Of a stretch of 64,000 bases of DNA, positions 549-63,629 are shown piece by piece (the stretch's first letter is position 1; each line of letters opens with the position of its first letter). Below the pieces are notes generated by a model, which was given only the letters and a program-made list of their open reading frames with translations, was not told where the DNA came from and searched no databases. The stretch is from Squalus acanthias (taxonomy: Eukaryota), in the NCBI GenBank assembly GCA_030390025.1, contig CM059425.1, positions 71,734,001 through 71,798,000 on the forward strand, read 5' to 3'. A program made the translations under genes and the position numbers.

Positions 549-1658
549 TGATGCGGAGATGCCGGTGTTGGACTGGGGTGGACAAAAGTGAGAAGTCGCA
601 CAACACCAGGTTATAGTCCAACAGTTTTATTTGAAATCACAAGCTTTCGGAGCTGCTGCCCCTTCGTCGGGTGAAGCGAAGGAATACGAATCGGCAAAGC
701 ATATGATTGTGATTTCAAATAAAACTGTTGGGGGGAAAAATTAGGTCGCGCCCCATTTGGGGCGCAAATATCGTCTGGACGCAAATATTAGCGCCTGGCG
801 CTAATTATCGCCACTGACTGGAAACTTCACTTTTACCGCCCCGGGAGGTGAGTGGAGCGCTAAATCAGGCGCTGCACACCTGTCTTAAGGCGCAAAGGCC
901 AAGGAGTGAGGCGCTAACTCAGAGCGCTGGCGAAGCTCATGTAATGTCAGTCAGCAATGGAACACACACACAATGGCATGGGCCAGTTCTTAAAGGGGAT
1001 GGTTAATCTTGCTTTCCATCCACATCCTGTTCATTGCAGCCTTGAATCTCGGCCTGGAGAGACTTGCACATCAAATGTGCTGGAAAGAACAATGGAGAGT
1101 ACCAGGCAAAGAGCTCAGAGTGCAGCTCCCACAGTCTCTGCTAAATCGATACAAGGAATGGCAAATCAAAATGAACCTGCAAAGTGCTGCTCAGTACCCA
1201 AAACTCCTTCACACAACGTTGAATCTCTCCAGAAGTCTCTCCCTCTCTCTCTCAGAATGCGTAGTTCAAAAATGCCACCAACAATAAAAGACAGGAAGAG
1301 GCCCCCTTTAAATAGCGCCCCCCCCAACCCCACAGCGATTGATAGCGTTCCAGTCTTCTGGTCGTTGGATGCGCCAGGCGGTAAGGCAGGGGGCGCCACT
1401 CAATTTCCGCTCCGGGGCGCCACAAGGGCGTTGCACCATGGAATGACGTCACAATCTGCGCGCGCAGGTGGTCGCAGCGGTAAAGTTTAGTGCCGCCGCA
1501 CAATCTCTAGTTAAGTTCCCGAGCGGCGCAAACATCGCTGCGCCCGGGCATTAGCGGCTTTGCGCCCCATTAGCGCCCTCTTAAGGCGCTAACGGGAGGC
1601 GCAACCAACTGAATTTTTACCCCTTGGACTATAACCTGGTGTTGTGTGACTTCTCACT
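549..1658. mobile_element. Fold-back Penelope-like 3'-end element (family B), interrupted by a MITE
   Basis: Arm ...gagaagtcgcacaacaccaggttatagtccaacag... and its reverse complement ...ttggactataacctggtgttgtgtgacttctcac. 13-bp TSD CAAGTAATATTCA at 536-548 and 1659-1671. Confidence 0.8.
731..1623. mobile_element. Non-autonomous PIF/Harbinger-type element (MITE)
   Basis: TIR GGGGGAAAAATT / AATTTTTACCCC, 3-bp TSD TTG (728-730, 1624-1626), GC-rich subterminal gcgc motifs. Related to 45916-46661. Confidence 0.75.
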
Positions 1659-18885: not shown

Positions 18886-21073
18886 TTTTGGCGACAAGGA
18901 TGGGATGCCAAAGCCATTTTTAGGGATCATGGAAGGACACAGTGTTCAACCTTCGAGTGGAAAAGTTTAAGGTACACAGGTAGCGTGCGGAGTCACTGTT
19001 CGACGGAATCGGGACAATCATGGCCGCACCTACGTGATTCATCGGAAGCCTCGGCATGTATGACCGAGCTCGTGAACCATTCAGTTCTTACATTGAGCGG
19101 ATGGAGATGTTTTTTAGGGCCAATAACATTATTGAGACCGAAGGTGCAGATGAGAATGTTCAAGCTCAAAATAAAGTAATTCGTGAACGTAAAAAAGCAA
19201 TTTTTCTAATGGAGATCGGGCCAGATGTCTACGGAATGTTGACAAACCTACTCGTGCCAGGAAAAGCGAAGGATTTGTCATTTGATGACATTGTCAAGAA
19301 ACTCGAGGACCATTTCAACCCAAAGCAATTAGAAATAGCAGAGGGCTATAAGTTTGGTACCAGAAATCAAAAAGAAAGTGAAACCATCAGAGAGTACATT
19401 GTAGCTCTTAAGAACCTGGCTTTGCATTGTAACTTCAGCACATTTTTGGATTGTGCATTGAGAGATAAGTTTGTGTGTGGACTGGTGGTTGAGCGCACAC
19501 AGTCCAAGTTACTGAACACTCCGAACCAAACATTTGACATAGCATGCAAAATTGCCCTATCTATGGAGATGGCATCTAAGAATGTTAGGGAGCTCCGTCC
19601 AACTCAAGTGACTAGTGCAGTTGAGGTTTACAGTCACAAAGCCACCGCCAAACCTAAAGCTGTGAGACCAAGTCAAAAGCATGTCGGTGAGAGCAGTTCA
19701 GTGAATTGTTATCGGTGCAATGGAAAACACTCACCACAGTCCTGCCAATACAGAAATGCAAGTGTTTTCACTGTCAGAAGAAAGGCCATATTTCAACAGC
19801 TTGCAGAGCTAGATCTAAAGCAGGAAGTAAGAACCATTCTAGTGGCAATGCAAAGCAACGACAACAAAAGGGAGGAATATTGAAGTGAACACACCTGATG
19901 TTGAAGAACTAGGCATCTACAGTATCTATGCCACTAGCAGTCATGAGAAAGATTTCCGTACAAAACTTTTGATCAATGACCAATGTATTGATATGTGTAT
20001 CGACACGGCGGCAGACTGCTCTATTATGAGTAAGGACACGAGACTAAGCTTAATCAAATACCACTTACAAAGAGTACCGTGGAGTTAAAAACCTACTCTG
20101 GAGAAATCCTAGAGACATGTGGACAAATGGAATGTACATTTCAACACAATGGCCAGTCAGTAAAGCTGCTTATTACTGTAGCGAGCTACAACAACAGGCT
20201 AACCCTCATGGGTAAAGACTGGTTGAGAAAGTTAAAACTAGACTGTAAAAACATCTTCAGTGTAGATGCTTCAAAGAAGTGACTCGACACAATGCTGAAC
20301 AAGTACAAAATCATGTTCACAGACAGTTATGAGGATATCACTGGGTATGACGTGCATATCCACATCAAGTCCAATGCGAAGCCTGTCTATTGTAAGGCAA
20401 GGCTGGTCCCCTATGTGTTCAAAAGTCAGGTGGAGGAAGAGCTAGTGAAACTGAGAGAATGGAGTGCTAGTAAAAACTGACAAAAGTGAATGGGCTACCC
20501 CAATTGTGGTAGTGCCCAAAGCAGACAAAACTGTACGCTTGTGCGGTGACTACAAAGTTACTATCAAGCAGTTCACGATGAGCAGTACCCATTACCTACA
20601 TCACAAGATTTGTATGCAGCACTCTCTGGGTCAAAGGTTTTCTCCAAGCTCGACCTGTCGCACGCTTATGCTCAGCTGAAATGTTGACAAAGAGAGTCAG
20701 CAGTATCTCACCATCAACACACACAAGGGACTGTACTCATACACCAAGCTGCCGTATGGTGTAAAGTCCTCCCCCAAAATCTTCCAGGCTACGATGGATA
20801 AGATTTTGCAAGGAGTTCCAAATTGCTTATGCAATCAAGACGATGTGCTGATCACAACAAACAGCGAGGAAGAAAATCTAGAAGTGTTAGATATAGTACT
20901 TCAAAGGTCGAATCCCACAATGTCAAATTGATAAGGAGCAAATGTGCTTTTGTGCAGCCCGAGGTTGTGTACCTTGGTCTGAAAGTTGATGCAAATGGCT
21001 TGCAAACAGTTAAGGAAAAGGTTGATGATGTCATCAATGCTCCAAAGCCACAGAACGTGTCTGAGCTGAGATC

Positions 21074-21257
21074 TTTCCTTGGAATGGTCCAGTACTACAC
21101 ACGTTTCCTTGGAATGGTCCAGTACTACACACGTTTCCTTGGAATGGTCCAGTACTACACACGTTTCCTTGGAATGGTCCAGTACTACACACGTTTCCTT
21201 GGAATGGTCCAGTACTACACACGTTTCCTTGGAATGGTCCAGTACTACACACGTTTC
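21074..21257 (+). repeat. 30-bp tandem repeat x6 inside Gypsy pol (in-frame FLGMVQYYTR)
   Basis: Six identical units TTTCCTTGGAATGGTCCAGTACTACACACG. Confidence 0.97.
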
Positions 21258-22262
21258 TTACCCGAGTTAGCTCCATTGCTCAAGCCCCTCAAGCAGGATG
21301 TCCAGTGGAAGTGGCCGAAAGCGCAACAGGAAGCTCACGATGCTTGTAAGAGAAGTCTCTCTAGCGATGCTCTACTTGTGCACTACAACACAGAGCGTGA
21401 GCTTAAGTTAGTGTGTGATGCTTCTAGCTATGGTGTGGGAGCTGTCACAAGCCACGTAATAGATGACGGCCAAGAGAAACCAATCGCATTCGCATCGTGA
21501 ACCCTCACAAAGAGCAAAAGAAACTACGCGCAAATTGAAAAGGAAGCACTCGTCATAGTGTTTGGAATCAAGAAATTCCAATAGTTCCTGATCGGCAGAA
21601 AGTTTACCCTGATAACCAATCACAAACAGCTCCTAGCAATATTGGGGCCCAAATCTGCCATCCCTGCAATGGCCGCATCAAGAATGCAATGTTGGGCAGT
21701 GTTGTTGTCACAATATGACTACATGATTGACTATCACACTTCAAAGCAAAACACAATCACAGATGCCTTATCCAGGTTGTCACAAGAAGACTCGTGTTGG
21801 GAGTGAAGGTGAGATTTTCACGCTAAGTGAAGTTGACAAAGACTTTCCCGTGAATGCAACTGAGATTGCAGATGAGACTCAAAAAGACTCAGTACTGAAA
21901 AAGTGTATGAAAACACCTTGAATGGATGGACTGATCAGTGTATGGACACAGAATTGAAACCATTCCATAACCATCATACTGAATTGTCTTGTGAGCAAGG
22001 TTGTATCAAGTGAGGAAACACTACTTCTTTGAGTTCAGAACCAAAACAAAACAGCCCGAAAATTGGTTCAACACCAAAACCTTCTTTGAGGAGATCAGGA
22101 AGGCTCCGCAAACCTGTTATTAAACTGGATTTGTAGTTCATTTAAAAGAAAAAAAGCCAGGAGTTTTTGTTATGTGGAACGTGTAATGCTGGGAAAGGTG
22201 GGACCATAGTTTTGTTGTATTTGAGAGGGGAATACATACATTTTTCTTTAAGGGGAAAGCAG

Positions 22263-22399: not shown

Positions 22400-25232
22400 A
22401 TTAGTGCTGGCACAAAAGTACCACATCAAAGAGCCAATCCAATTGAGCAGAGTCTTGTCATATGTAAAATGTCAGCACCACAGTCTATTTGATTAATTAT
22501 CTGGGCAAACAAAGCTTCCCTTGTTGTTAAAAAGCTGGAATACCTGATGTTTTGGTTACACAACATGGCTGGCCAGTTGGCTGGAAAAACAGCAGTCACA
22601 TATTAACATCTCAGCCCCAGTTTTATAGGATATAAATACTCGTGTTAAGATGCTACTTACGTAGTGATTTTTACAGAACCGCTAGTAATCGCTGAGAAAA
22701 TGGTTAATTACTCCCCATTTAGTTTAAAGGTAATTTCTTGTGCTGAATTTATAAAGTTCCAATTTATTTATTCCAGTTGATGGGGTTAGATGAAGAAGGG
22801 TGGGAGGAGGCTCGTGTGGAATATAAACACCGGCATGGACCTGTTGGGTTGAATGGCCTGGTTCTGTGCTGTAAATACTTTGTAATTTAATAGAGTAAGG
22901 GTTAACCATGACCTTCACATCGTTACATTGAACATGCATTAGCAAAGAAAATTTTCAGTTATGAAATTCTAAAATTACACTAATCACTGAGGCAATTGTC
23001 ATTCTATAGCATAAAATATAAGCATCACATGCTCATGTCCCATGGGCTGTCTTGTCACATGAATTAGCCAGTGCTGGCTCTCCTCAGTGATCAGCCACAT
23101 CATTAGGTGGTGCTCTTTGCTGCCCATTTAACTAGAAAGGGATGAGTGGGCAACTGAACCCATCTTCGTTGTCTTATTGTATATTTGCCTCCTAGTAGCT
23201 ACTGTGGTTGTTGAAAGACACAGCCTTGACTTGATAGTTAATATTACAGAATAATAAAAGGTATAATATCACTTTTATACTTGTTCTAATTTATAGATCA
23301 CATGAACTTTTAAAACCTTAGAACTGCACTGTGATGTATACAGCTTAAAAAAAAAGGAATGGCTGCAATGCAGAGTTAAAAGGATTGTGTTGGCTATTTG
23401 TTTAGTTTAATTCAAATGCTTCCATACCCCTAGGATTATTGACTAAAATGTTGGCAGTTAGCCAAAATTGATTGATTGTAATTTATATTAATTCCAAACA
23501 TCCCTATCGCATTGATTAATTCTCTTCACGTGAATAATCCATTTGTCTTCCTGGCTGGCTACTTTTGTTCTGATCTGATTGCCTCCTCCTTACCACCCAT
23601 GATTATGCCTTCTATTGGTAAATCAGAGGTTTGTTTCAGAAGCTTCTTTACTATAACCTCTCAGCATAGATACAGAGCTGGCACTTTTCAGAAATTATTT
23701 TCTGAGATTATTGGGCCAGTGAATCAACCCTGACCTCATCCACAATAAAGATGTTTGGTGCCTAAAAAAAATTCAGATGTTTTGGTAGATATTTGAGCAA
23801 AGAAGTGATGTATTTCATGCCTTTCGTGTTTTTATGTACTATAGAAACTGGTAACATTGGGACACAGACCAAACTCAAAAACTATGGTGAATCTATAAAT
23901 TAAATTGGATGGAAGCATTTGATGGAGTGCAAAACTTTTCAGCTTTACTTTACATTCCCTTCCCCCCACCATCTTTGGCTGTACATTAATCTGCAGCAAA
24001 GTACACACACACACACACACACTTCGTCGCCCAGACAGGTACAGAACATCTTGCTGGGGCTTTCTGTTGGGTCACCAAATACATGAATAAATGGCTAAAA
24101 TTCTGGTAACCCCCCCCAAAAATACAATTCTTCATTGTCAACATCGAATGGGGAGTTAAATATATCATAAAAAAACAAGTAGGCATGCTTAAATGATGCT
24201 CTTCGTCAAGTTTAGACATGGATGAGGTTTTGGATATTTTCAGTATCATTGTAAAGAACATTAGAATAGCGAGAGTCTTGGCATTTCTGCATTCAGCTAT
24301 ATGCTCGACTTCAAGAAACCATATTCACAGAAAATGATTCTCTGGTGTACAAACAGCTCTTACTTCACGACTCCAGTCTAAAAGAAATGCCTTTTTTCTG
24401 CACTGTGAAGCTGTGTTGCTCATCTGCATTGTCTGCCATTGTTTACCGCCAAAACAAAGGATGTGTCACATTCTGCAGTCTGACCTAATAAATAAGCCAC
24501 CACAAGTGAGGTTAATCAGATAATTCACAAGTGGCAAAGTCAGTCTCACAAACTTAGTTGATCAGCATTAACTCCATCTCTAACATTTTTGTGTTTTAAA
24601 GTATAAAACTATAAAGTTTAAACTGTGAAAAGAATAGGTGATGAGCATTTTTTTTTTAACTTATTTGTAAATTTGAGAAAATTGCCTTGTGATCTCATCT
24701 GCCTATATTGCCTCTCATCAATATTTCCACAGCCGTTTCTCCATCTACATGCTTTAACTATTGTTAGAAAAATGGTTTGAAGGGCACACGTCAATAATTC
24801 AGTATGCAAATGGGCTTCCCAGTGTGGTATTGAGCCATACAGACCAGGTATGTCTCGAGTTTCATCCCTGGTGCATGGTGGACAATGGTCGGGTGATAGA
24901 ATTGGCCTTAGGGATGATGAAAATTCGTTGGGGTTCCCACTCCAATCAGCAAACTGGAAAGTGGGACTTTGGATGAGGACAGAATCAGGCTTGGCTATAA
25001 TTTCTCCTCCAACTTGAATGACCTTGCACATAAATCATCAGGTGACGTCAAAGACGTGGCAGGCTGCCATAGTTCATGGAACTGAACCCTAGCACGAGTC
25101 TGATGGGTCGGGAGCAGAATCTTGGCTGATTTTCTCTTCCCTGCATTTACAAGCTGTCATTCAGGGAGCTGAATTTCTTTCATATATTTAAATTTTCAAT
25201 GAAATATTTTAATCCAGAAAGGAATAAAACAC

Positions 25233-25981
25233 TAATTCAAAAGCAAAATACTGCGGATGCTGGAAATCTGATATAAAAACAGAAAATGCTGGTAATACTC
25301 AGCAGGTCAGGCAGCACCTGTGGAGAGAGAAACAGAGTAAACATTTCAGGTCGATGACCCTTTGTCAGAACTGGAAAAAACTGGAGATGGAACAGGTTTT
25401 TAAGCAAGGGCAGGGGCAGGGAAAGGGGGGAGGGGAGGAAAGAACAAAAGGGAAGGTCTGTGATAGGATGGAAGGCAGGAGAGATTAAGAGACATTAAGA
25501 GAGATTAAGAGATGGTGCAAGGCAAAAGGAGATGGTAATGGGACAAGTTAAGAAACAAAAGATGGCTCTAGATGAAGTGTAAATGGCACTGGCAGAATGA
25601 AAGAAAGCTGCCATGTGGGAGAGAGAGAAAAATGGAGAAAAAAAAGGATAGGGGCAGAGGTTATGGTCTGAAATTGTTGAACTCTATGTTGAGTCCAGAA
25701 GGCTAATCGAAAGATGAGGTGCTGTTCCTCGAGTTTACGTTGAGCTTCATTGAAGCAGTGTAAGAGGCCGAGAACGGTGAGGTCTGAGTGGGAGTGGAGC
25801 GGAGAATTAAAGTGACAGGCGACCGGAAGCTCAGGGTCACCCTTATGGACTGAACGGAGGTGTTCCGCAAAGCGGTCACCCAATCTGCGTTTGGTCTCCC
25901 CAATGTAGAGGAGACCGCATCATGAGCAGCGAATACAGTATACTAAATTGCAAGAAGTACAAGTAAATCGCAAGGAGCCAC
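25233..25981 (-). mobile_element. Penelope-like element (family A), 5'-truncated: GIY-YIG end + 3' UTR
   Basis: ORF 25548..25883 (GDRFAEHLRSV...QRKLEEQHLIFRL) matches the C-terminus of 39945..41720. TSD AAGGAATAAAACAC at 25219-25232 and 25982-25995. Confidence 0.9.
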
Positions 25982-27054: not shown

Positions 27055-27511
27055 AATACGATAGCAAAATACCGCGGATGCTGGAAATCCGAAATAACAA
27101 CAGAAAACGCTGGAAAAACTCAGCAGGCCAGGCAGCATCCGTGGAGAGAGAAACAGAGTTAACATTTCAGGTCGAAGACCTTTCGTCAGAACTGGAAAAA
27201 AGCAGGAAATGAAATAGATTTAAAGCAACTATAATGCTGGGAAAAGGGGGAGGGGATGAAAGAACAAAAGGGAAGGTCAGTGTCTCTCAATGTCTCTTAA
27301 TCTCTCCTGCTTTCTATACTACCACTGACCTTCCCTTTTGTTCTTTCATCCCCTCCCCCTTTTCCCAGCATTATACTTGCTTTAAATCTATTTCATTTCC
27401 TGCTTTTTTCCAGTTCTGACGAAAGGTCTTCGACCTGAAACGTTAACTCTGTTTCTCTCTCCACGGATGCTGCCTGGCCTGCTGAGTTTTTCCAGCGTTT
27501 TCTGTTGTTAT
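27055..27511. mobile_element. Fold-back Penelope-like 3'-end element (family A) with two hammerhead motifs
   Basis: 189-bp inverted arms 27094-27282 and 27323-27511, 40-bp spacer. TSD ACTGG(G)AAGATTCT at 27041-27054 and 27512-27524. Confidence 0.88.
27412..27448 (+). ncRNA. Putative minimal type I hammerhead ribozyme (PLE family A); mirror copy on minus strand at 27157-27193
   Basis: AGTT-CTGACGA-A-AGGTC ttc GACCT-GAAA-CGTT-AACT: core boxes, helix II, palindromic helix III (AACGTT), helix I AGTT/AACT. Confidence 0.72.
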
Positions 27512-28399
27512 ACTGGAAGATTCTGTTTGGATTGGTCTGTGGCTGCAACTGGAGTTGTATGTAATGTATGGACATAAATTGTATGGATAAGGATGAAAAT
27601 ACCGTTGGCTAGATTAGCATATTCTGGATTTGCAGTAATTAGTTGACCATCTAACTCAATGTACAAAGAAGTTGCAAAATTTAGTAATAACTGCATGATC
27701 CATACTGCTGTGTATAGGACAAGATATCCAGGAACGTGTTATAGAGGGTGCAACAAAAATATAAGCCACAAAATGTAGAATTGCGTCATTTCTGAATGTC
27801 ATCTGAACTTTAAAGTGTTTTAGAGCCTTGAAGCTGGATGCTGCATTGGTTTTATTCTATATAAAGGTATGAATAAGACTTGTTGTTTTGTCAAGGTTGT
27901 GCTGGCTGGGATTCTGGTTGCACAGCTTAATGGAGAGTGAGAGTCAGTGGAAGCCTGAGTATCACAGCGTGGGAGTGAAGTGGTTGTCACTGTTGCATAA
28001 GTGATGTCACGTGACTCATGCTAGGGCACTGTATTTCTATTTTTGCAGCGAGACTGAAGAGTGCAGTACCTTGGATTTGATTAAAATTAACAGGTTTTTT
28101 TTGTTTTTCACATCTACTCTAGAGAATGAAGGAGAGAACATTTTTGCAAATCTCTGTTCTATGTGCTGGGCTTCACTCCATAATTCAGTGTTAAATAACA
28201 GATTAATAACAATAAAAGTCATACAAGTTTCTCTAAAATCTTGAGATGTATCCAAATGTAATAAGAAAAAAAACTTTTGTAGTGTAAGTGTATGATTAGA
28301 ATAACCCTACTTGTCATGCTTCTGCCTTTAAAGATCAGCAATTTTGTTAATGCAAGTTGTCTGCACTTTATTGTAGTTGATGTGCTGTATCGTTTTGCT

Positions 28400-28959: not shown

Positions 28960-30347
28960 ATCGAATCTACAGCACAGCAACAGGCCATTCGGCCTAACTG
29001 GTCTATGTCAGTATCTATACTCCACGCAAGCCTCCTCCCTCTCTAATGACCTCTTCCCACCCTGCCCCCATATCCCTCTATTCCTTTCTCCCTCATGTAT
29101 GCATCAAGCCTGCCCTTAAATGCATGAATGCTGTGTGCTTCAACCACTCCATTTGTCATGATGCGGAGATGCCGGTGTTGGACTGGGGTGGACAAAAATG
29201 AGAAGTCGCACAACACCAGGTTATAGTCCAACAGTTTTATTTGAAATCACAAGCTTCCGAAAGCAACCGAAAGCTTGTGATTTCAAATAAAACTGTTGGA
29301 CTATAACCTGGTGTTGTGCGACTTCTCATTTTTGTCCATTTGTCAGTGAGTTCCACATTCCCACCACACTCTTCTTTAATGTGTAAAGAAATTCCTCCTC
29401 AATTCTTTATTTGATCTATTATTAGCTATCTATATTAATGCCCCCTTGATTTGGGCTCACCAACAAGTGGAAACAGTATCTCCATGTCCACCCTATTGAA
29501 TGCCTTCATAATTTTAAGGGCTTTTATCACGTCTCCTCGGTCTTCTCTTTTCCAGAGAAAAGAGCCCCAGTTAGCCTAATCTTTCCTGATTGTTGCATCC
29601 TCTCAATTCTGCTAACATCCTTGTAAATCTTTTTCTGCACCTTCTCCAGTGCCTCTATATCGTTTTTAGAATATGGAGACCAGAACTGCACACTGTACTC
29701 CAAGTGTGGTCTAACCAAGTTTCTATATAAATTTAACATTATCTCCCTGCTTTTGTATTCTATTCCTCTAGAAATAAACTCCAGTATTTTATTTGCACGC
29801 TTTATGGCCTTATCAACTTGTGTTGCTACTTTTAGTGATTTACGTATCTGTCTTCCCAAATCTCTTTGCTCCTCTACTCCATTTAGTTTCTTACTTTCCA
29901 AATAATAAGTGATCTTCTTATTCCTCCTACCAATGAACCATCTCACATTCAGCTATATTAAATTTAATTTGCCATTTATCCACCCACTCTGCAAACTTGT
30001 TTGTGTTCCTGTATTTTGGTGCAGTAATCCACGTTATTAGCCATACGCCCCAATTTGGTATCATCTACAAATTTCAACATCAACCTCCAATTCCTGAATC
30101 CAAGTCATTTATGTAAATGGTAAGCAACTGTGGTCCCAGCACGGATCCCTGCAGGACAGGCTGAGAAACTTCCTTTAACTCTTACCCTCTGTTTTCTGTT
30201 TTGTAGATACCTTTCAGTCTATACTGCTACCTGGCTCCTGACTTCACATGCCCTGATCTTTATCACAAATCTCTTATGTGGCTCCTTATAGAAGGCCTTC
30301 TGAAAGTCCATGTATACCACATTCACTGCATTGTCCTCGTCTACTCT
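28960..30347 (-). mobile_element. CR1 LINE, 5'-truncated, interrupted at 29159-29334
   Basis: ORF 29527..29946 (LVRPHLEYSVQFWSP). CR1 3' UTR near 28960-29150. Confidence 0.9.
29159..29334. mobile_element. Fold-back Penelope-like 3'-end element (family B)
   Basis: Inverted arms centred near 29265. TSD TCCATTTGTCA at 29148-29158 and 29335-29345. Confidence 0.85.
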
Positions 30348-39500: not shown

Positions 39501-39944
39501 TGTGTAACTTCCAGGAAAGGGTTCAAAATTGCCTGGCATTCAATGAAGTGCCAGGCAAAGTCCATACATCACCCATTCCAACTGGCACTTGTTACACAAG
39601 CATTTCACATTTGTTATGGGGAAGGCTACATTTTGCCACAGGGCAGGGGTGCAAATTTTTGTGGCTAGCAAAGACAAATGTGTAAGCTTACAAGTTGCCA
39701 GGGGGCTCGGTCTCCAAGAGGTAGGCCAAATAAGGCCTGGGTCTGCAGCAATTGCATATCTGGTCCTATTCTCTGGTCCCTTGGACTGCTATCCAGATGA
39801 CTGAATGCAGCACATGTGTAGCAGTGAACCTTTCTAACCGTAGTTTTAACAGTCATCTCCCAGGGAGGGATGGAATATTTGTGGGGTTAGGTAGATCCTA
39901 CGTATTACCTTGAGCTGGCCAGATTTTAACACCTGGAGGAAATC

Positions 39945-41720
39945 ATGTGGGTGGGGGCCAAGGTGAAGGGGAAACCATCGGCCCGCCAACTCTCTGACAC
40001 CTCCTCCTACCTCCACCTGGACCATGACCCCACTACCGAACATCAAGCCACCGTGTCCAAGACTGTCACTGACCTCATCTCCTCTGGAGATCTTCCCCCC
40101 ACGGCCGCCAACCTCATAGTTCCCCAACCCTGCACAGCCCGCTTCTACCTCCTTCCCAAGATCCACAAACAGGACTGCCCCGGTAGACCCATCGTTTCAG
40201 CCTGTTCTTGCCCCACGGAACTTATCTCTTCCTATCTCGACTCTATTTTTTCTCCCCTTGTCCAGTCTCTTCCCACCTACATCCGCGACTCTTCCGATGC
40301 CCTCCGCCATTTTAACAGTTTCCAGTTTCCCGGCCCCAACCGTCTCCTCTTCACTATGGACGTACAATCCCTCTACACCTCCATTCCCCACCAGGATGGC
40401 CTGAGGGCGCTCCGCTTCTTCCTTGAACAGAGGCCCAACCAGTCCCCATCCACCACCACCCTCCTCCGCCTGGCTGAACTTGTTCTCACATTGAACAACT
40501 TCTCCTTTGACTCTACCCATTTCCTCCAAATTAAAGGTGTTGCTATGGGTACCCGCATGGGTCCTAGCTATGCCTGCCTTTTCGTGGGATATGTGGAACA
40601 CTCTTTGTTCCAGTCCTACTCGGGTCCCCTCCCTCACCTCTTTTTCCGGTACATTGATGACTGTATCGGTGCCGTCTCCTGCTCTCGCCCTGAACTAGAA
40701 CATTTCATTCACTATGCTTCCAATTTCCACCCTTCCCTCACCTTCACATGGTCCATCTCCGACTCTTCCCTTCCCTTCCTCGACTTCTCCATCTCCATCT
40801 CTGGGGATAGGTTATTGACTAACATTCACTACAAGCCCACCGACTCCCACAGCTACCTGGACTACACTTCCTCCCACCCCGCCTCCTGTAAGGACTCTAT
40901 TCCATTCTCCCAGTTTCTCCGTCTCCGCCGCATCTGCTCTGATGATGCCACCTTCCATACCAGTGCTTCCGACATGTCTTCCTTTTTCCTCAACCGAGGA
41001 TTCCCCTCTACCGTGGTCGACACGGCCCTCGACCGTGTCCGTTCTATCTCCCGCACATCTGCCCTCACCCCTGCCCCTCCCTCCCGGAACCACGATAGGG
41101 TTCCCCTTGTCCTCACCTTTCACCCCACCAGCCTCCACATTCAACGGATCATCCTCCGCCATTTCCGCCACCTCCAGCGTGATCCCACCACTAAACACAT
41201 CTTCCCCTCACCTCCCCTTTCAGCATTCCGTAGGGACCGCGCCCTCCGCGACACCCTAGTCCACTCCTCTACCACCCCCAGCACCCCTTCCCCTTCGCCC
41301 GGCACCTTCCCGTGCACGCGCAGGAGATGCAACACATGCCCTTATACCTCCCCTCTTCCCACTGTCCAGGGCCCCAAACACCCCTTCCAGGTGAAACAGC
41401 GATTTACTTGTACTTCCTGCAATTTAGTATACTGTATTCGCTGCTCACGATGTGGACTCCTCTACATTGGGGAGACCAAACGCAGATTGGGTGACCGCTT
41501 TGCGGAACACCTCCGTTCAGTCCGTAAGGGGGACCCCGAGCTCCCGGTGGCCTGTCACTTTAATTCACCGCTTCACTCCCACTCTGACCTCACCGTCCTC
41601 GGCCTATTACACTGTTCCACGGAAGCTCAGCGTAAGCTCGAGGAACAGCACCTCATCTTTCGTTTAGGCACGCTACAGCCCTCTGGACTCAATATCGAGT
41701 TCAACAATTTTAGATCATAA
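39945..41720 (+). CDS. Penelope-like reverse transcriptase / GIY-YIG endonuclease (N-terminally truncated)
   Basis: PKIHK, PGRPIVS, MDVQSLYT, GVAMGTRMGPSYA, FRYIDD, LPFLD, YKPTD, Cys linker CTRRRCNTC, NLVYCIRCSRCGLLYIGET...RFAEH. First ~13 codons come from the flanking MITE. Confidence 0.9.
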   Translation: MWVGAKVKGKPSARQLSDTSSYLHLDHDPTTEHQATVSKTVTDLISSGDLPPTAANLIVPQPCTARFYLLPKIHKQDCPGRPIVSACSCPTELISSYLDSIFSPLVQSLPTYIRDSSDALRHFNSFQFPGPNRLLFTMDVQSLYTSIPHQDGLRALRFFLEQRPNQSPSTTTLLRLAELVLTLNNFSFDSTHFLQIKGVAMGTRMGPSYACLFVGYVEHSLFQSYSGPLPHLFFRYIDDCIGAVSCSRPELEHFIHYASNFHPSLTFTWSISDSSLPFLDFSISISGDRLLTNIHYKPTDSHSYLDYTSSHPASCKDSIPFSQFLRLRRICSDDATFHTSASDMSSFFLNRGFPSTVVDTALDRVRSISRTSALTPAPPSRNHDRVPLVLTFHPTSLHIQRIILRHFRHLQRDPTTKHIFPSPPLSAFRRDRALRDTLVHSSTTPSTPSPSPGTFPCTRRRCNTCPYTSPLPTVQGPKHPFQVKQRFTCTSCNLVYCIRCSRCGLLYIGETKRRLGDRFAEHLRSVRKGDPELPVACHFNSPLHSHSDLTVLGLLHCSTEAQRKLEEQHLIFRLGTLQPSGLNIEFNNFRS

Positions 41721-42088
41721 CCTCAGCTCCAATCACATTTATATTTTATTTTATCCACCCTTTTATTTGTCCCCCCCCACCTTTTTTTTCCTCCTAGAAG
41801 CTGGCAGCTGTCCTTCATTCTGCCAGTGGATTTCACACTTCATTCAGCCTTAATCTGTCACATTAACACCACCTCTAGCCTTGCATATCTCTTAATGTCT
41901 CTCCATCTCCCCCTTTGTTCCTTTATCCCCTCCCCCTTTTCCCAGCTTTACCCTGGCCTTAAATCTATTTGATTTCCGGCTCTTCCCAGTTCTGATGAAA
42001 GGTCATCGACCTGAAACGTTAACTCTCTTTCTCTCTCCACGGATGCTGCCTGGCCTGCTGAGTTTTTCCAGCGTTTTCTGTTGTTATT
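39985..42088 (+). mobile_element. Penelope-like retroelement (family A, probably Neptune clade), 5'-truncated
   Basis: Open RT + GIY-YIG ORF, pyrimidine-rich 3' UTR with a hammerhead motif. Candidate TSD TCGGCCC at 39978-39984 and 42089-42095. Confidence 0.93.
41988..42024 (+). ncRNA. Putative minimal type I hammerhead ribozyme in PLE 3' UTR
   Basis: AGTT-CTGATGA-A-AGGTC atc GACCT-GAAA-CGTT-AACT. Predicted cleavage after GUU at 42020. Confidence 0.75.
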
Positions 42089-44764
42089 TCGGCCCTCCAC
42101 ACAGTTAGGCCCCGGGATTTAAATGGTCTACATGGGCCCTGTCAGTGTCCTACCCGAGCCCAGCAGGAAGCACTAGCTTTGGGTTGCAGGAGGCTGGCAC
42201 CGGGAACCCAAAGGAACGGTCCCTGGCAATCAGGTACGTTCTTAAGAGGGGCGAGAGGGAGAGAGAAGCCCGGGGCAGGGGAGCGGGAGGGAAGCCCGAG
42301 AAGGTCCAAGGTTTCCTTATGGAGTCTGGAGGAACACTCCTGTTCCTCTTGGCCTACAAGGAAAGCAAAAAATGGAAAAACAACTTAATTTTCTGTGCCT
42401 CTTCTGGCCCCGGATCCATCTGCCGAATGTTTTACTAGCATTTCCGGGGCTGGGCAGGACTGCCGTGACTTCTAGTTAAAATTGCGTCGTGGTCCTAATT
42501 GCTTCATAGGACCCCGATGTTAATATATTCATGAGCTGCCTGCCTGGCTGTGGCAGGCACCTTAGCCACCTACGCAAACTGCACGCTTAAAATGGCAGCG
42601 GGCAGGAGCGCATCAGAAACGCAGCGGTAAGTACTCCACTGTTATTTTAACCACCTGCTCGCCCCATTCCAATCGGGTGGGCAGGGTTAAAATCGGGGCT
42701 CTAGTTTCAGTGACTGATACACATCACGCAGTAACCCAGTTGTTTTTCTGTTTACCAATACAATGTTCCCAGTTTTTCTACACACGCGCTTCTGGACTAT
42801 TTGAGTGCATTTTGCCTTTTGAACTGTCTCAAAATGAATTATCCAATACTGTTTGTTTATATTCTTACGCAATGCTAATATTTAGAAATATATAATTAAA
42901 AAAAGCTCAAAGATGTTCTTTTGAGGAATCATACATTATTTCCCCCCCAAAAAGTCCAAAGTGACAGTAGCATAACTGGCAACAATAAATATTCTTTAGG
43001 GTATTTGCAGCACTGTATTATAACTTATTGTCCAAACTGATTCCCAACGAGCCTTGTATATAAAGTGAGCTGAGTGGAGCTGAAGAATTAATCGTGCATA
43101 AAATATGGTGTCTTAGGGACTGCACAGGAAAAGCTACACGTGGGGAAATGGAGATGTAGAAGCTAGTTTTGGTTTCTGAATGGAAAGATCTGGCCTAACC
43201 AAAAACAACAACACAAACTGTGTCTATGCACCTTCCTCTATTGTATGTTTTTCTTGGTTGTTTAATGTACTTTTATTACATGTGATTTCATTTTAGCTGG
43301 GAGGACATTTATTTAAATTTCTGTATATAATCTAACAATTAGTGTACCTTGATGATTCTGAACCTGCATATCTGTAACTGGGAGTAACCACATAGTCTGT
43401 CAAATTAACCACTAAAATGCATTTGGAATAAATAGCTGCTGTCTGTGGCCAGAACATCTTACCCACTAAAGTTACTGTTGTACAAAACAGAACGTGCTTT
43501 TCAACTAAAACGAGAATCCAGCTTTAGTGTTGAAGACCTGAAGGGTTGTGCAGTAAATTTTATGGTTTGCTCTCGTGTTCGAAACAAAGATAGTCTCGGC
43601 ATTCTAATGGCCAAAATGTATGTCATCATCAACTCGGTTGTTAAAGTTCAGAGTGTGCGTGATGTAGGTCCCTTCTGTCAAACATTATTGATCCCTCCTC
43701 TCAAAGAGCTAGATATTTCAAAGCAAAGTACACTACTCAGAAGCCTCATTTGGAGATGTGACATTTCAGCTCTGCATGTGTTAGACTAGGTAGTGCATTA
43801 TCCCCACAAATAGGTAGCGATTGGAGCCTGTGTACGTCTCAACTTCCAAAGGCGGCTTAACCCCAGGACTTCTGAGGGTAGCTCTGATGTGTAGAAGCAC
43901 AGCAGGAAAGCTTTCCTCTTAAAATTTCGTGTATTTATCAGTCAGTCATTTTGTTTCTCCTTAACCCTTTGCTCTTCTCAAATAAAGCTCTTCTAAGTAC
44001 AGTTCCCTGATAATTCAAGTGACAGAGAAGGTTCAGTTTAAATCCTAGGTTTCACTCGCATTTCAAATTGCTTTGCTTTCATTGATAAGTTCCACCAGCT
44101 TTTGGCCAAGTTGTAAGACAGCACACTGCATGGCAACAGAATGATCGGAGGTGGTTGGAGGCTGGCCCAGGCCGAAAATTAGTTCTGTACTGAACACGTT
44201 ACGTAGCCACTCCATTACTTGACCCACTGCAGAGTGACACATGGCCACGGAAGAGTCCTTAGCTCAAACTGTCCGCTCCCAACTGGTGGAGAATGGGAGT
44301 GGCGTGGGGGGTGGCAGAGAATAACCTAAAAGGTCGGGCAACTAGGAAAGTCTTGCATTTTGATTCTTTTTAGCGAAAAGTCTCTTGAAAAGATTAAAGC
44401 ACAGAATTGCAATGCATGCTGGTATCAATATATAATTGAATTTTTTTTGAGAGATTAGTGAGATTTTAAATCCCCCCATTGATTAAATTTTATTGAGTTT
44501 GTGGCCGAGAAATTGGTCCATGCAGCACCCATTTTTCAGGTGCTACTCGGACTACTAAGGCCCCAATATGGCAGGATGGCCCTTTGCATATGTATCTGAG
44601 ACTTTGCTGAGATTGTGTACAGATAGAGAAACACTCATTTTGCAATCACCTGGAGGTCAGCATAGAGGCCACTGGCAGCATTTCCCATCTAGTGTTTGTC
44701 GATGTCTCCTGACTAAAACTGCCGGGCGGGATTTAAGTTTCCACACTGTCCTGAGGTCGCTCCA

Positions 44765-51471: not shown

Positions 51472-51858
51472 AAAAGCAAAATAATGTAGATGCTGGATGA
51501 CGTAAGAAAACTACTAGGCACTTGGTCTAAGCGTTAAACAAAGCTTTAATCAACTGTTTTTCAACATGGAGGTCTAGTTGTCCTTCACTAGTTCCTGTTA
51601 AAGAATGTCCTGAGCAAGCTGGGCCCATGCCCGAGTATTTATACTCTCCCTGGACAGTGCCACCAGCAGGCCGCCCAGTATTATTTCATAAGTCATTTCC
51701 ACATGAATGACAGGATTCATGTCACTGGAAATCTGAAATAAAAACAGAAAATGCTGGAAACACTCAGCAGGTCAGGCAGCAACTGTGGAGAGAGAAACAG
51801 AGTTAATGTTTCAGGTCGATGACCTTTCATTTAGAACTGGCGATGATCTTTCGTCAGA
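51472..51858 (-). mobile_element. Penelope family A 3' end, interrupted by a solo LTR
   Basis: aaaagcaaa...gatgctgga|...|ctggaaatctgaaataaaaacag... matches 2215-2345. Confidence 0.8.
51498..51724 (-). mobile_element. Solo LTR (227 bp)
   Basis: TGAC...GTCA termini, 5-bp TSD CTGGA (51493-97, 51725-29). On the minus strand TATAAATA (~51640) precedes ATTAAA (~51548). Confidence 0.78.
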
Positions 51859-55527: not shown

Positions 55528-55781
55528 GTATGTTGGTCTTTTATATATACCAGGTATCTACTTAATAATCTGCAAGCATCTTCAAAATTCCTGTTGGGGA
55601 ATTTGTCCACTGATCCACTCTCAATTCTGCTAGTTCCAGTGTGATTTATAATCCTTCTGGGTTACCCGAATGCCAGATGTGTTCATAAGGCCTTTGTGTT
55701 ACACACAGACCATAAGGGAGTCTGAAACACACAGACCATAAGAGAGGTCTGAAACCTAACACCTGCACTCCATTATAATAA

Positions 55782-56007
55782 AAATGAGAAGTCGCACAAC
55801 ACCAGGTTATAGTCCAACAGATTTATTTAATTTTACAAGCTTTCGGAGCTATCGCTCCTTCGTCAGGTAAGTTAGCAATTACCTGACGAAGGAGCGATAG
55901 CTCCGAAAGCTTGTAAAATTAAATAAATCTGTTGGACTATAACCTGGTGTTGTGCGACTTCTCATTTTTGTCCACCCCAGTCCAACGCCGGCATCTCCAC
56001 ATCATGA
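55782..56007. mobile_element. Fold-back Penelope-like 3'-end element (family B) with two complete hammerhead motifs
   Basis: Perfect 90-bp inverted arms 55781-55870 and 55879-55968, 8-nt loop. TSD CCATTATAATAA at 55770-55781 and 56008-56019. Confidence 0.9.
55879..55916 (+). ncRNA. Putative minimal type I hammerhead ribozyme (family B); identical copy on minus strand at 55833-55870
   Basis: TTAC-CTGACGA-A-GGAGC gata GCTCC-GAAA-GCTT-GTAA: helix I TTAC/GTAA, helix II, palindromic helix III (AAGCTT). Confidence 0.75.
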
Positions 56008-56681
56008 CCATTATAATAAGGTATTGCACAGTCGTTGGCCCTAGTCCAGATATTTTGAGATGGGTGGGGGAGAAAATAATCAACAAAAATCACACTCACT
56101 GTGGTTTAGTGGTTGTTAACGGTACAAATCATTACTTTAGATATGTTATCATTTTTGCTGGAAAGAACTGCAGCTTCAAACAGAATGACGAGATTAAACC
56201 TTAAGCTTTGTAATATTGGAGCAAGAGGGTGGAGTTCTTAGCTTGTCCGTGATAATTAAAACAATATGACTCAAGATAATGTAGAACCTAACCAAACCTG
56301 TTTTGACATTTATCACAGTCTCTGCCTGCATGGTGTGTAAATATTAATTAGACTTTTTATCAGTTCGATAATGAAAGTAAAATACTTGATTGAATGATAT
56401 GGTTATGGTTGTGTCCCTTGTTGTCAGAAAGAAAAGACGACTGGCATTTATATATTGACAGACCTGTTGTGTGTCTCCCGCATTCTCTGTTTTTATTTCA
56501 TATTTGCAGCATTTGCATCTTTTTCTTTTTATCAGAGTAGGGCCATTTGCTTTATATTAAATGGAAGTTAAAAATGTTTTTTTTTTACATTCTGACTTGA
56601 ATTTATGGGGACTGGTCAAGAAGCAATTGAAGCCAGAATTAGAGAGAGCTAACTTGTAATGAAACTAAAAAATGTTTTACA

Positions 56682-57667: not shown

Positions 57668-58094
57668 ATTATAAATAAAATAAATGTTGTGTATAGACAA
57701 AAGAAATCTATGCAGTTAATCTCAGTGAAGATACAATGGGCTAGAAATTCGTTATAGCCCAGGAATGGGCGGTATAATTAGAAAAGTTGGAGAATTAGCG
57801 CCAGGTGCTAATTTTTTTAGACTGCACGCAAAATTCAGGCTCACTGCTCAAAGAAATGATTGGAGCGCTAATTCAAATCTTTAAGCCCGAGCTCATTGGC
57901 GTTACACTCAAAGGGTGGACCAATATCAGATGCAGTCTAATCGCAAGTCATGATTGCCACAGGTTTTTTCCAGTTCTTAAAGGGGAGGTTCATTGATGCT
58001 GTAGAACCTCATTCTCAGCATTGCTGGCTGTGCAGCTGCCTCAGCAATCAGCAGCAGGTCAAGAAGGAGCCGGAGGACTGAAGCAACTGTACTC

Positions 58095-59985
58095 ATGGCA
58101 GATGCACGCCCCAGGGAGAGAGCCTGCACATTCTGCGATCAAGCATTGGAGGCGTTGGTGTTCGCTGTGGAGAGACGGAGGGTGATGCTCTACCCGGCAA
58201 GTGGCAGGAGGTCCTCGCCGCAAGTCTTCCACACCATGTGGAGGGAGGTAGTGCAGCACGTCTCGGGCAGCACTGTGGTCCCCAGGACCCCCACACAGTG
58301 CAGGAAGAAATTTAACAACCTTACTCGGGTGGTCAGGGTGAGTGAATGCTTCAACAAATGCTATATACCACCATCTGAAGCACAGTCTTCACGCACTGCC
58401 CAAAGCACCACACCCCCAGCACTCACCCACCAACAATCTCTACCTACCAACACTCACACCTTGCACACAATGACAGCTATTCAACTATCACCCAATCACA
58501 TTGCTCCACAGTCACTCACTCACTTTCCTTTCTCTTGCAGGCCAAGGTGGCCCACAACAGGAGGGAGCAGGAGCGCACAGGCGGTGGACAAGCCGACACC
58601 CAACCACTGTCTGTGCTGGAGAATTGCGTGCTGCAAATCATTGAGCGCCAGGTGGTGGGCGGCCGTGGCTACCGGTGATGTTGACCCCCTTTGGGAAAAC
58701 AACGGTATGTTCATCCCTACTCCTTCTTCTCACATCCCACTTCCCCCTTACCCCACAGGTGTTTCGCACTTTCCAGCTAATCATGCTGTATGCATGCATT
58801 TCTCCCTTCCTGCCCTCCTCCCCTCACCTTAACCCAACTCTTGTGCCTTTATGCTTTCAGATAATGAGCAAACACCTGAGCAGCCTGTCCCTGAGGGCAC
58901 CGTAGAGAGCGAGGTGGGAGAAGAGGAGGAGGAAGACACCGCGTCACTGCCTGTCTCACCCGCAGGCACCAGCTCAGATGCTGGCACTACGCATTCTTTA
59001 GAGGCTAGTGTAGTAGCGGGATCTGCACAGGGTGATGCACCGGGGATGAGTGGGCTGCAGCAAGGCCAGGACAATGGTAGCTTGGGGGCGAGTTTGCGGA
59101 TGAGTTCTGCTGCACAGGACTCAGATGAGGACCTTGATGGGGAGGCCTTTAGAAGGAAGGTGATGGGCATGCACACAGAGATGATGGGTGCAATGGCAAG
59201 GGTGCCAGAGAGCCTCTCGGCAATGATAAGGAGTGTGGAGGAGTCCACCTCCAACATTGCACAAGGCTCTGCGCACACCATGGAGCCCATCATTTCCAGT
59301 CTGCAAAGGATGGTAGACTCCCAGAGAGACCGTGGCGACCCAGACCTGATGCCGCGTGTGATGGGCGATCTGGCAGCGTCCATTGCAGCACAGGTGGAAG
59401 TGACGCAATATCTTAGTGCTGTAATGCAGTCTATGCTTGGTGGCATCCAATCTCAGACTGCTCTCATTCAGTCTCAGCTTGATGCCACACAAGCTCTGAC
59501 TGCTGCCATCGTGGCTGGATCTACCACTGTCGACCGGGGCTTTCAGGGTGTCGCAGCAGTCTGTGCTCCAACAGATTGCTAAGGATGCTGAGGTGCTGCC
59601 CCAGGGGAGTGGGAGTGGGTCAGTGGAGCAGGAACCTGCTGTTCTCTCTCAGGATGACAGCATTCCTGCTCCAACCACTGCCATTCCACCATTGCCCTTG
59701 TCGCTGCCTTTCATCCAGCCAGCCCAGACTGCTGCCACCCATGCTGAGGTGGTGCAGTCTACAGCCAGGCCTTCGAGGCCCAGAGCTGGTCAAGGGTGTC
59801 CTGCAAGGCCATCTGAAGTGTCCCGCACGGACACCCAGCAGCCTTCCACCAGCCCTGCTGCAGCCACTGGGCCAACACTTTGTAGAAGCACTAGAGTAGG
59901 CAAAGGCACAGTAACAAGAGGCACTAAGGGTTTGCACAAGGGTGAAGTTAATATTTTTGTTGTAAATGTGTTCACTGATTTTTGA
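58095..59985 (+). pseudogene. Harbinger Myb/SANT-like DNA-binding protein gene, 3 exons (58095-58337, 58541-58704, 58861-~59985)
   Basis: MADARPRERACTFCDQALEALV...WREV...RTPTQCRKKFNNLTRVVR|gtgagt ... ttgcag|AKVAHNRREQERTGGG ... G|gtatgt ... ttcag|DNEQ. Frameshifts at ~58658 and ~59550. Confidence 0.82.
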
Positions 59986-61644: not shown

Positions 61645-62152
61645 GGCATTGGATTCACCTCGCCAATGCTCTTGCGCCCCATTAGCGTTGGATTCGCCTC
61701 GCCAATGCTCTTGCGCCCCATTAGCGTTGGATTCACCTCGCCAATGCTCTTGCGCCCCATTAGCGTTGGATTCGCCTCACCAATGCTCTAGTGTTCCATT
61801 AGCGTTGGATTCGCCTCGCCAATGCTCTTGTGCCCCATTAGCGTTGGATTCGCCTCGCCAATGCTCTTGCGCCCCATTAGCGTTGGATTCGCCTCACCAA
61901 TGCTCTAGTGTTCCATTAGCGTTGGATTCGCCTCGCCAATGCTCTTGCGCCCCATTAGCGTTGGATTCGCCTCGCCAATGCTCTTGCGCCCCATTAGCAT
62001 TGGATTCGCCTCGCCAATGCTCTTGCGCCCCATTAGCGTTGGATTCGCCTCGCCAATGCTCTTGCGCCCCATTAGCGTTGGATTCGCCTCGCCAATGCTC
62101 TAGTGTTCCATTAGCGTTGGATTCGCCTCGCCAATGCTCTGGCGCCCCATTA
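61645..62152. repeat. 39-bp minisatellite x13 in the Harbinger subterminal region
   Basis: Unit GCGTTGGATTCGCCTCGCCAATGCTCTTGCGCCCCATTA, with variant units (..CTAGTGTTCC..) at positions 4, 7 and 12. Confidence 0.97.
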
Positions 62153-63629
62153 CCGCCATCTGCTGGCGTTAACGGGAGGCGCGAAGGTACCAAATTCCCC
62201 CCCCCCCCCACCCCCACCCCCACCCCCAATATTCCCAACTGATTATCCATTCTTAAAGAAAAAGTGAACTAGTGGAATTGGTAGTGAACAGGTTCAATGC
62301 TGCCACACTGGTGCACAATACCTATATGCCAAAAATAATGTAGGCAGCAAGAACTGCTGCTCTCAGTATCAAAGTAAATTTCTGAGTTAAAACAGCCACA
62401 GCATAAAATCCATACTTTATATCAAAAATATGATTTGAAGAAGTAAAGATGTGTTGAGTATATATATTGGAGTTAAGTCCTTCTGTTTAATTTTACTGAA
62501 AAAGTTGGTGCAAAATGCAATTGTATACTCATCTTAGATAAAATTATTGAAGGGAGACATTTTACTCCTTCAGGTGGGTAAAATGCACTTCATGGCTAAG
62601 TTATGAATTGAGAAATTAGATGGCTGGGAGTGTCTGCACAATAGACTCACATCAAGGGGTTCAGATGATATCATAAACCTCAAGGATGATGCTTGTGCAG
62701 TTTATAACTGTTACCTTGACCCAACCCAGTTATCAGATTTTAAAGCTTCTGATGAAAGCCAGGAAACCATTCAACCCATCTTGCCTGTACTGGCTCTATA
62801 AAAGAGCTGGTCCCTATACTTTCGTCATACCTTTCTAAAGTTTATTGCAATGGTCAAAAAAAACTCATTTAAAACCAGTCTCATTTTTAAGTTTTCTATT
62901 CCATCATACTTCAATAAGTCGGTATTAATGAGCTCCAAGAAATAGTATCAGTAAAAGTTATGTTCCCCACCACCCCCCCCCCCCCCTTTTTTAAAACATC
63001 AGTGTCTTATGTTCTCCAAGCTCTCTGTGTGCAAACAGATAGCATGTCAGGAGATGCAGTTTAGCTGCCTTCCCCCCTCCCTTCCAGGCAAATTTGTTTT
63101 ATGTGGTTGCAATCTGCTCTACTGCCAGTCTCTAAAACCCTGAACCCTGCTCCTCGCCCAGAGGATTACAGTCCTCCCAACCATTGCAAACCGGAGGAAT
63201 CATCTCTTCTTCCCCCCCACCTACCTTTCCAAAAGACCACCATTGCTGAGGTGGGAGATTCTCGTGCCCATTGGTTGATATGTTACCTCTCTCTCTCTCT
63301 CTCTCTCTCTCTGTCACCCTGCTTCCCCTTTCCTCCCTATTTATGTGAACAGTGACATTCACAGGACTTTTCACTTTTGCAACTGCCTTCCCCCCCCCCC
63401 CCCCCCCCCCACAGTAAACCTCTTTAGGTAAAGGAAAGCACAGGAATAGAACAAATATTGCAGTGCCTGGATCAGTGCTTACTGATTTTATATTTCTTCG
63501 CTAATTTTTCTCCCCTTTTCTGAAGGTGTTGACTGATGTTGAGGTATAAGTGCCACAATCCTTTGGTACTTCAGTCAAGCACCCATTCTTCATCTGTGAG
63601 CCTTGACCGTGAGTGTTGACGGGCTATGC

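Follow-up and report, generated by a model that had tools for sequence, protein, structure and literature searches.

Introduction

Penelope-like elements (PLEs) leave a recognisable kind of insertion. An inverted, 5'-truncated copy together with a one-sided tail of 30–40 bp is described as a typical PLE feature (PMC8557442, PMC8969392), and a further account records inverted pLTRs with a tail, TSDs of 8–10 bp, a head-to-head arrangement and palindromes at the junction (PMC3846280). The tail has been attributed to endonuclease-mediated resolution (PMC8557442).

PLEs also carry minimal hammerhead ribozymes (min-HHRs). In metazoan PLEs they are reported to show no activity as monomers and weak activity as dimers (PMC4209133), and PMC6765202 cites Lunse et al. 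on dimer cleavage. In Schistosoma, dual minimal hammerheads have been described on opposite strands, 100–700 bp apart (Cervera and De la Pena 2014, PMC4209133). For PAc, a Poseidon PLE of Anolis carolinensis, the protein was reported to cleave and extend both target strands, and is predicted to be a dimer (Frangieh et al. 2024, PMC11167929). According to the same paper it uses two start sites that bracket the tail and prefers ATT, and the anole ribozyme needs the protein, while ribozyme cleavage is dispensable for insertion in vitro (PMC11167929).

Here we analyse a short fold-back insertion, called copy C below, within a stretch of DNA of 64,000 nucleotides (the window). We conclude that copy C is very probably a dead-on-arrival and very recent insertion of an abundant EN+ PLE, truncated to the last ~130 nt and arranged as an inverted copy plus tail.

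Architecture of the insert

Copy C occupies positions 55782–56007 (226 bp), between identical 12-bp repeats. Its parts are as follows.

55770..55781, plus strand: left TSD, 12 bp, 83% A+T, with ATT within it
55782..55870, minus strand: inverted PLE 3'-end copy without tail, 89 bp; its outer end has a 2-nt microhomology with the TSD
55871..55878, minus strand: 8-nt loop; its minus-strand reading resembles native sequence upstream of helix I, and it is assigned to the inverted arm
55879..55967, plus strand: sense PLE 3'-end copy, 89 bp, 5'-truncated at helix I
55968..56007, plus strand: one-sided PLE tail, 40 nt, between two family-wide 3' ends (~55962–55970 and 56005–56006); compare the start sites in PMC11167929
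56008..56019, plus strand: right TSD, 12 bp

The order is therefore an 89-bp arm, a loop of 8 nt (55871–55878), a complementary 89-bp arm and 40 nt of unpaired tail (55968–56007). The arms (55782–55870 and 55879–55967) are 100% complementary; counting two TSD bases, they come to 91 bp and the tail to 38 nt. The TSD is identical at 55770–55781 and 56008–56019, and the chance of this is about 8e-6, with 11 x 11 positions of boundary slack. The insert has a predicted fold of −164.2 kcal/mol (z = −26.65), and none of 200 shuffled sequences was as stable.

The 12-bp TSD, the 226-bp insert and the 8-nt loop reported in the initial annotation were all recovered on re-measurement. So were the perfect inverted arms and the one-sided tail, but their sizes, given there as 90 bp and 39 nt, are here 89 bp and 40 nt. 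It had also been stated that the arms begin exactly at helix I. This holds for the symmetric part only, because the loop appears to be the native upstream sequence of the inverted arm: in public contigs (see below), loose ends before helix I resemble the minus-strand reading of the loop. We infer that the junction lies at about 55878/55879, with a 1-nt microhomology.

It is worth adding that two 20-nt direct repeats, 26 nt apart, lie just upstream of the TSD (55701–55746); no connection with the insertion was seen.

Long perfect inverted repeats bounded by a TSD could be taken as a MITE or foldback DNA transposon, or as an assembly artefact in which a PLE end has been doubled. MITEs and foldback transposons have inverted repeats at both termini and a TSD of fixed length, and perfect palindromes are a known class of assembly artefact. 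The ends of copy C are asymmetric, however, with the 40-nt tail on one side only; the TSDs vary from 11 to 13 bp among the copies described below, and the loop reads as native element sequence. We consider explanations of this type extremely improbable, and return to them below where other copies and the public contigs bear on them.

Hammerhead motifs

A purpose-built descriptor of the minimal type I hammerhead was run over the whole 64-kb window, with 200 dinucleotide shuffles as control. It gave six matches, all of them inside PLE copies, whereas the shuffles (n = 200) averaged 0.085 matches and never gave more than 2. Two of the six are in copy C.

55879..55916, plus strand: minimal type I hammerhead motif; helix I of 4 bp, core CUGACGA, an extra A between 9 and 10.1, helix II of 5 bp, GAAA, and palindromic AGCU; predicted cut after 55912
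55833..55870, minus strand: minimal type I hammerhead motif, found by the same descriptor; predicted cut at 55837

The claim that a complete minimal hammerhead motif is encoded on each strand is thus borne out at the level of the motif, and the descriptor places the predicted cut after 55912, the same position as before. Helix III had been given as AAGCUU. It is indeed palindromic, but the helix proper is the 4-nt AGCU, the longer string taking in core A14 and the cleavage-site base.

The copy C motif shows the features of PLE minimal type I hammerheads, namely the core boxes, helices I and II, the extra base 9/10.1, G10.1-C11.1 and a palindromic helix III. Helix III is a 4-nt palindrome in five of the six motifs. 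The helices co-vary among copy C, copy A of the same family and the second PLE family of the window (both described below), helix I being UUAC/GUAA, UCAC/GUGA and AGUU/AACU, respectively. An Rfam search, which had been proposed as a check, was run, and no hammerhead model matched (E ≤ 1 for the whole window; E ≤ 10 for a single arm). Since Rfam lists no hammerhead family at copy C, the identification as a ribozyme is based on the motif, its context and the covariation.

Rfam did return matches to miRNA families at 55828–55921 and 27231–27373. They are far below the gathering scores and reflect only the long hairpins, and a microRNA reading was rejected.

Other copies of the family in the window

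Two further copies of the copy C family are present in the window.

549..1658, minus strand: copy A, a fold-back with a 13-bp TSD (536–548/1659–1671)
549–706, minus strand: tailed arm of copy A, with one hammerhead motif (637–674) that has a U4-to-C core change, and ~32 nt of upstream sequence
707–731 and 1624–1658: inverted arm of copy A, which starts 2 nt ahead of the cut site and is interrupted by a nested TIR element
29159..29334, minus strand: copy B, a fold-back in which the arms join within helix II/III and a piece of 8 nt is duplicated at the join; 11-bp TSD (29148–29158/29335–29345)

That the three family copies each have their own TSD was noted previously, and is true of all of them (13 bp in A, 11 bp in B, 12 bp in C), although for the copy at 549 it is seen only across a nested element of ~890 bp. 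The junctions differ in all three. Two complete motifs are found only in copy C; the copy at 549 has the one with the U4-to-C change, and in copy B, at 29159, the hammerhead is incomplete on both strands.

In copies A and B, the TSD begins (546–548 and 29156–29158) with the same three bases as the 3' continuation of the element. This suggests priming by short target-RNA pairing.

The nested element in the inverted arm of copy A (732–1623, ~890 bp) has short inverted termini starting GGGG and a 4-bp TTGG duplication. It is probably a non-autonomous DNA transposon, and as a guess of the Harbinger type. Elsewhere in the window, the frames at 10410–10868 and 58005–58832 resemble, by eye, the Myb/SANT-type proteins of Harbinger transposons. 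The older copy A has retained its fold-back through this later insertion, which argues against the MITE and artefact readings.

Other repeats in the window include decayed gag-/pol-like frames of an LTR retrotransposon (19038–21500, identified by eye), a short perfect tandem repeat inside the pol-like frame (21074–21257), and a tandem array (61646–62155) of ~39-bp units, across which a frame of 235 codons stays open.

A second PLE family in the window

The window contains a second PLE family, whose 3' end has no BLAST match to the 3' end of the copy C family, and which provides an internal control.

39930..42090, plus strand: second-family PLE copy; an RT and GIY-YIG frame of 596 codons, then a 3' end (41988–42024) that carries a hammerhead motif and is homologous to copy E
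27055..27514, no strand assigned: copy E, a second-family fold-back with a 39-nt tail, 189-bp arms (27094–27282/27323–27511) with 2 mismatches, and a 10-bp exact TSD
2211–2344, 25232–25971, 51725–51840 and 56461–56529: more truncated second-family 3' ends, the first two with TSD candidates of 9 and 14 bp

The 596-codon frame (39930–41720) is uninterrupted; the copy that contains it is 5'-truncated and ends at the tail-less position. Pfam gives similarity to RVT_1 (E 1.3e-5) and GIY-YIG (E 6.5e-4) in this frame, both with scores that fall short of the curated cut-offs. A CX4CXXC motif stands ahead of the endonuclease, and as this motif is described in PMC8557442 it suggests the Neptune or Nematis clades. 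Within the 64-kb window an RT ORF was found only in this second family, and none is linked to the copy C family.

Copy E has two outward-facing hammerhead motifs by the descriptor, and its loop of 40 nt matches native upstream sequence. The 2 mismatches in its arms are a further point against the MITE and artefact readings. Because an unrelated, ORF-linked family made copy E, the fold-back geometry is a habit of PLE insertion and not the property of one element.

Public contigs

Four of the 24 listed runs were mapped onto 55861–56160; from the runs with a small word share (X13–X24), only X14 was included. The mapping reference passes only junctions that resemble the one in copy C. In two DNA runs of organism A, the summed contig depth, which is no copy number, is 0.5–8.7 million over the element as against 15.4 and 8.4 on the flank, and the copy C family is plainly very abundant. 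Among 24 of the 389 loose-end rows, those that have mixed flanks are found at two 3' positions, 55962–55970 (tail-less) and 56005–56006 (tailed). Exact 20-nt patterns of the family gave 0 matches each in contigs from metagenomes, viruses and prokaryote genomes.

Six other junction variants are found at 55872–55878, when rows are paired by equal depth. Two of these are palindromic and near helix I: one has a depth of 96.1 in X1 and 194.6 in X4, and the other 181.4 in X1 only, on a flank of 8–15. In X1, three of these six variants account for 291.2 (181.4 + 96.1 + 13.7) of the loop depth of 291.3, and the exact loop of copy C is in no X1 contig mapped (~55% of the run covered). In X4, ~27–61 units of the loop depth are left unexplained, compared with a flank of 8.4. 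The depth across the copy C junction is ~0.04–0.05% of that of the adjacent arm, a rough figure, as depth is no copy number.

Unique junctions had been put forward as a test of the view that such copies are independent by-products of insertion. The three window copies all agree with it, and the public contigs do so in part, with six other variants of which two are at raised depth. These raised-depth palindromic variants may reflect repeated joining at short palindromes, chimeras formed in the libraries, or a small subfamily that has propagated. Propagation would imply a non-autonomous fold-back mini-retroelement, in which hairpins with a self-silenced ribozyme on each strand are re-inserted as a unit by the PLE protein in trans and give rise to subfamilies with shared junctions. 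In its favour, the two variants are well above flank depth, one of them in two studies (X1 and X4), and PLE proteins are described as able to move pLTR-flanked sequence in trans (PMC3846280). However, no two of the window copies share a junction, three of the six variants explain the whole of the X1 loop depth in the ~55% of the run covered, nothing in the hairpin would set an RNA end at the tail-less boundary, and recurrent joining at short palindromes or fold-back chimeras in the library would produce the same signal. We therefore regard such a mini-element as very unlikely.

The clustering of junctions at helix I or at the cut site might also be taken to indicate that the ribozyme acts in vivo. 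We make no such claim, as the reference favours copy C-like junctions and copy A, with its arm starting 2 nt ahead of the cut site, is a single case.

One contig each in X1 and X4 (organism A) and in X6 (organism B) aligns from exactly the first base of the TSD, and runs on for at least 248 letters that do not follow the tail. Judged from these alignment coordinates, all three runs probably contain an empty allele of the copy C site, which fits a very recent insertion of copy C. A probable empty allele also explains why the copy C loop is absent from the mapped X1 contigs, an absence that would otherwise speak for a MITE or an assembly artefact.

Run X14, which we guess to be RNA, has a depth of 0 at 55861–55870 and from 56021 on; as contigs show presence, not absence, this is no evidence against transcription. 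In X6, contigs go back ~40 nt from the tail-less end (reference 55921–55962), with depths up to 588. This pattern suggests short head-to-tail repeats of the end of the copy C family.

Folding and the proposed two-strand ribozyme

RNAs of the viroid-like two-polarity class have a ribozyme motif encoded on both strands. Copy C could accordingly be imagined as a functional, rod-shaped ribozyme RNA of this class, processed and replicated via both strands. Each of its strands has a complete motif, the helices co-vary between copies and families, and single units are predicted to pair via the palindrome: an unconstrained cofold of two single units gives −25.1 kcal/mol, as against −10.7 kcal/mol per monomer. 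Such pairing is what one would expect of PLE motifs; the same unit–unit cofold also pairs A14 with the cleavage-site base.

The full hairpin behaves differently from the single arm in the folding model. A fold in which helices I and II are imposed is penalised by +58 kcal/mol in the hairpin (probability ~1e-41), compared with +0.8 kcal/mol in a single arm, and partial transcripts, when folded, zip up as the sense arm emerges. The ribozyme is predicted to be sequestered because on each strand the antisense arm lies 5' of the ribozyme and is transcribed first; and because each strand has one cut site, no unit-length RNA could be released. In addition, copy C is an integrated piece of DNA flanked by a TSD, copy E of an unrelated family has the same geometry, and PLE minimal hammerheads are reported as inactive monomers and weak dimers (PMC4209133) or as needing protein (PMC11167929). 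We find it scarcely credible that copy C is a functional two-polarity RNA. The self-contained ribozyme hairpin of both polarities, mobilised in trans, which the initial annotation offered as one of two readings, is not upheld, for the same reasons of sequestration and of a single cut site per strand.

On these predictions, a read-through RNA is an 89-bp duplex with its ribozyme silenced. If the locus is transcribed, dsRNA would be the likelier product, and this could at most feed small-RNA silencing of the family. Inverted Penelope copies are reported to match siRNAs in transgenic flies (PMC3681739).

Formation of the insert

The other reading offered, that of a minimal by-product of PLE inverted insertion, stands: the architecture matches the published one, the junctions differ, and the same geometry is found in an unrelated family. 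Copy C has the features of an EN+ PLE insertion, with a head-to-head inverted truncated copy, a one-sided tail, two 3' ends, a variable AT-rich TSD and a near-3' hammerhead motif. It follows the published pattern of PLE insertion, and is no viroid-like element of a new type. The assignment of its family to the EN+ PLEs is drawn from 3'-end pieces, the RT/GIY-YIG ORF of the window belonging to the second family, and we hold it with high confidence.

Both outer ends of copy C correspond to 3' ends of the element, and between them they represent the two positions preferred by the family; the outer ends of the fold-backs carry microhomologies of 0–4 nt. The loop is supplied by the tailed arm in copy A, and by the tail-less arm in copies C and E (n = 3). 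A loop that can come from either arm suits two separately primed cDNAs, and is not easily obtained from a single snap-back cDNA, on the strength of three cases.

On the basis of these observations, and given that copy C is a PLE insertion, we lean somewhat towards the following sequence of events. The RT/GIY-YIG protein would nick both target strands 12 bp apart and prime one cDNA at each nick, one cDNA beginning at the tailed start site and the other at the tail-less one. Both would halt after ~100–130 nt, and their truncated ends would be joined head-to-head via a 1-nt microhomology. Two outward-facing hammerheads would be the outcome simply because the ribozyme is ~90–130 nt from the 3' end of the element and both pieces extend only slightly beyond it. 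Whether these minimal inserts arise directly in the genome from a dimeric PLE protein that primes two cDNAs from opposite nicks at two start sites is, in our judgement, evenly balanced. Formation by self-priming or template switching is a lesser possibility for a PLE insertion of this kind; self-priming on an antisense template is put forward in PMC3846280. Another repair route seems unlikely. Neither a double-priming model nor a named non-autonomous fold-back Penelope class was found in the literature searched, most subscription papers being outside its reach.

Read in this way, copy C is ordinary as a PLE insertion, though very clean, and its worth is as study material. It belongs to a very abundant, young family of short, probably polymorphic fold-backs, in which the arm that supplies the loop, the cDNA stops relative to the cut site and the microhomologies at the ends can all be counted. 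An abundant family of this kind could test double priming by counting. If it were true that a fold-back subfamily propagates as a unit, it would represent a ribozyme-bearing, non-autonomous retroelement of a new kind.

Comparison with known systems

Animal non-LTR retrozymes, as presented in PMC7229834 and bioRxiv 10.64898/2026.07.22.740005, are like copy C in being non-coding and PLE-related and in having a type I hammerhead. They are described as units repeated directly in tandem, every unit having a ribozyme on the same strand, and as yielding circular RNA, whereas copy C has inverted arms and one ribozyme motif per strand. Identification of copy C as a non-LTR retrozyme was rejected, because the class calls for two or more directly repeated units, all with a hammerhead on the same strand, an arrangement that copy C does not have.

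The hammerhead motif resembles the PLE min-HHR described in PMC4209133, with which it shares the 4-bp helix I, the extra base 9/10.1, G10.1-C11.1 and the palindromic 15.2-16.2. Helix II has 5 bp in copy C and 7–8 bp in the Schistosoma families reported there, and the two motifs of copy C are 8 nt apart, compared with 100–700 bp in the pairs of that paper (PMC4209133).

PAc resembles the copy C family in having two 3' ends that bracket the tail, an AT-rich ATT target and a hammerhead upstream of the start sites (PMC11167929). We saw no model of how inverted copies form in the main text of that paper (PMC11167929).

Copy C is also like the complex insertions described for canonical EN+ PLEs, which share with copy C the head-to-head, tail-less inverted copy, the tail of 30–40 bp, the TSD of ~10 bp and the near-3' hammerhead. 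Copy C differs from these canonical insertions in that both of its pieces are only ~100–130 nt long. Because both have been cut to this length, copy C has no ORF and no direct pLTR, and is nearly a pure hairpin.
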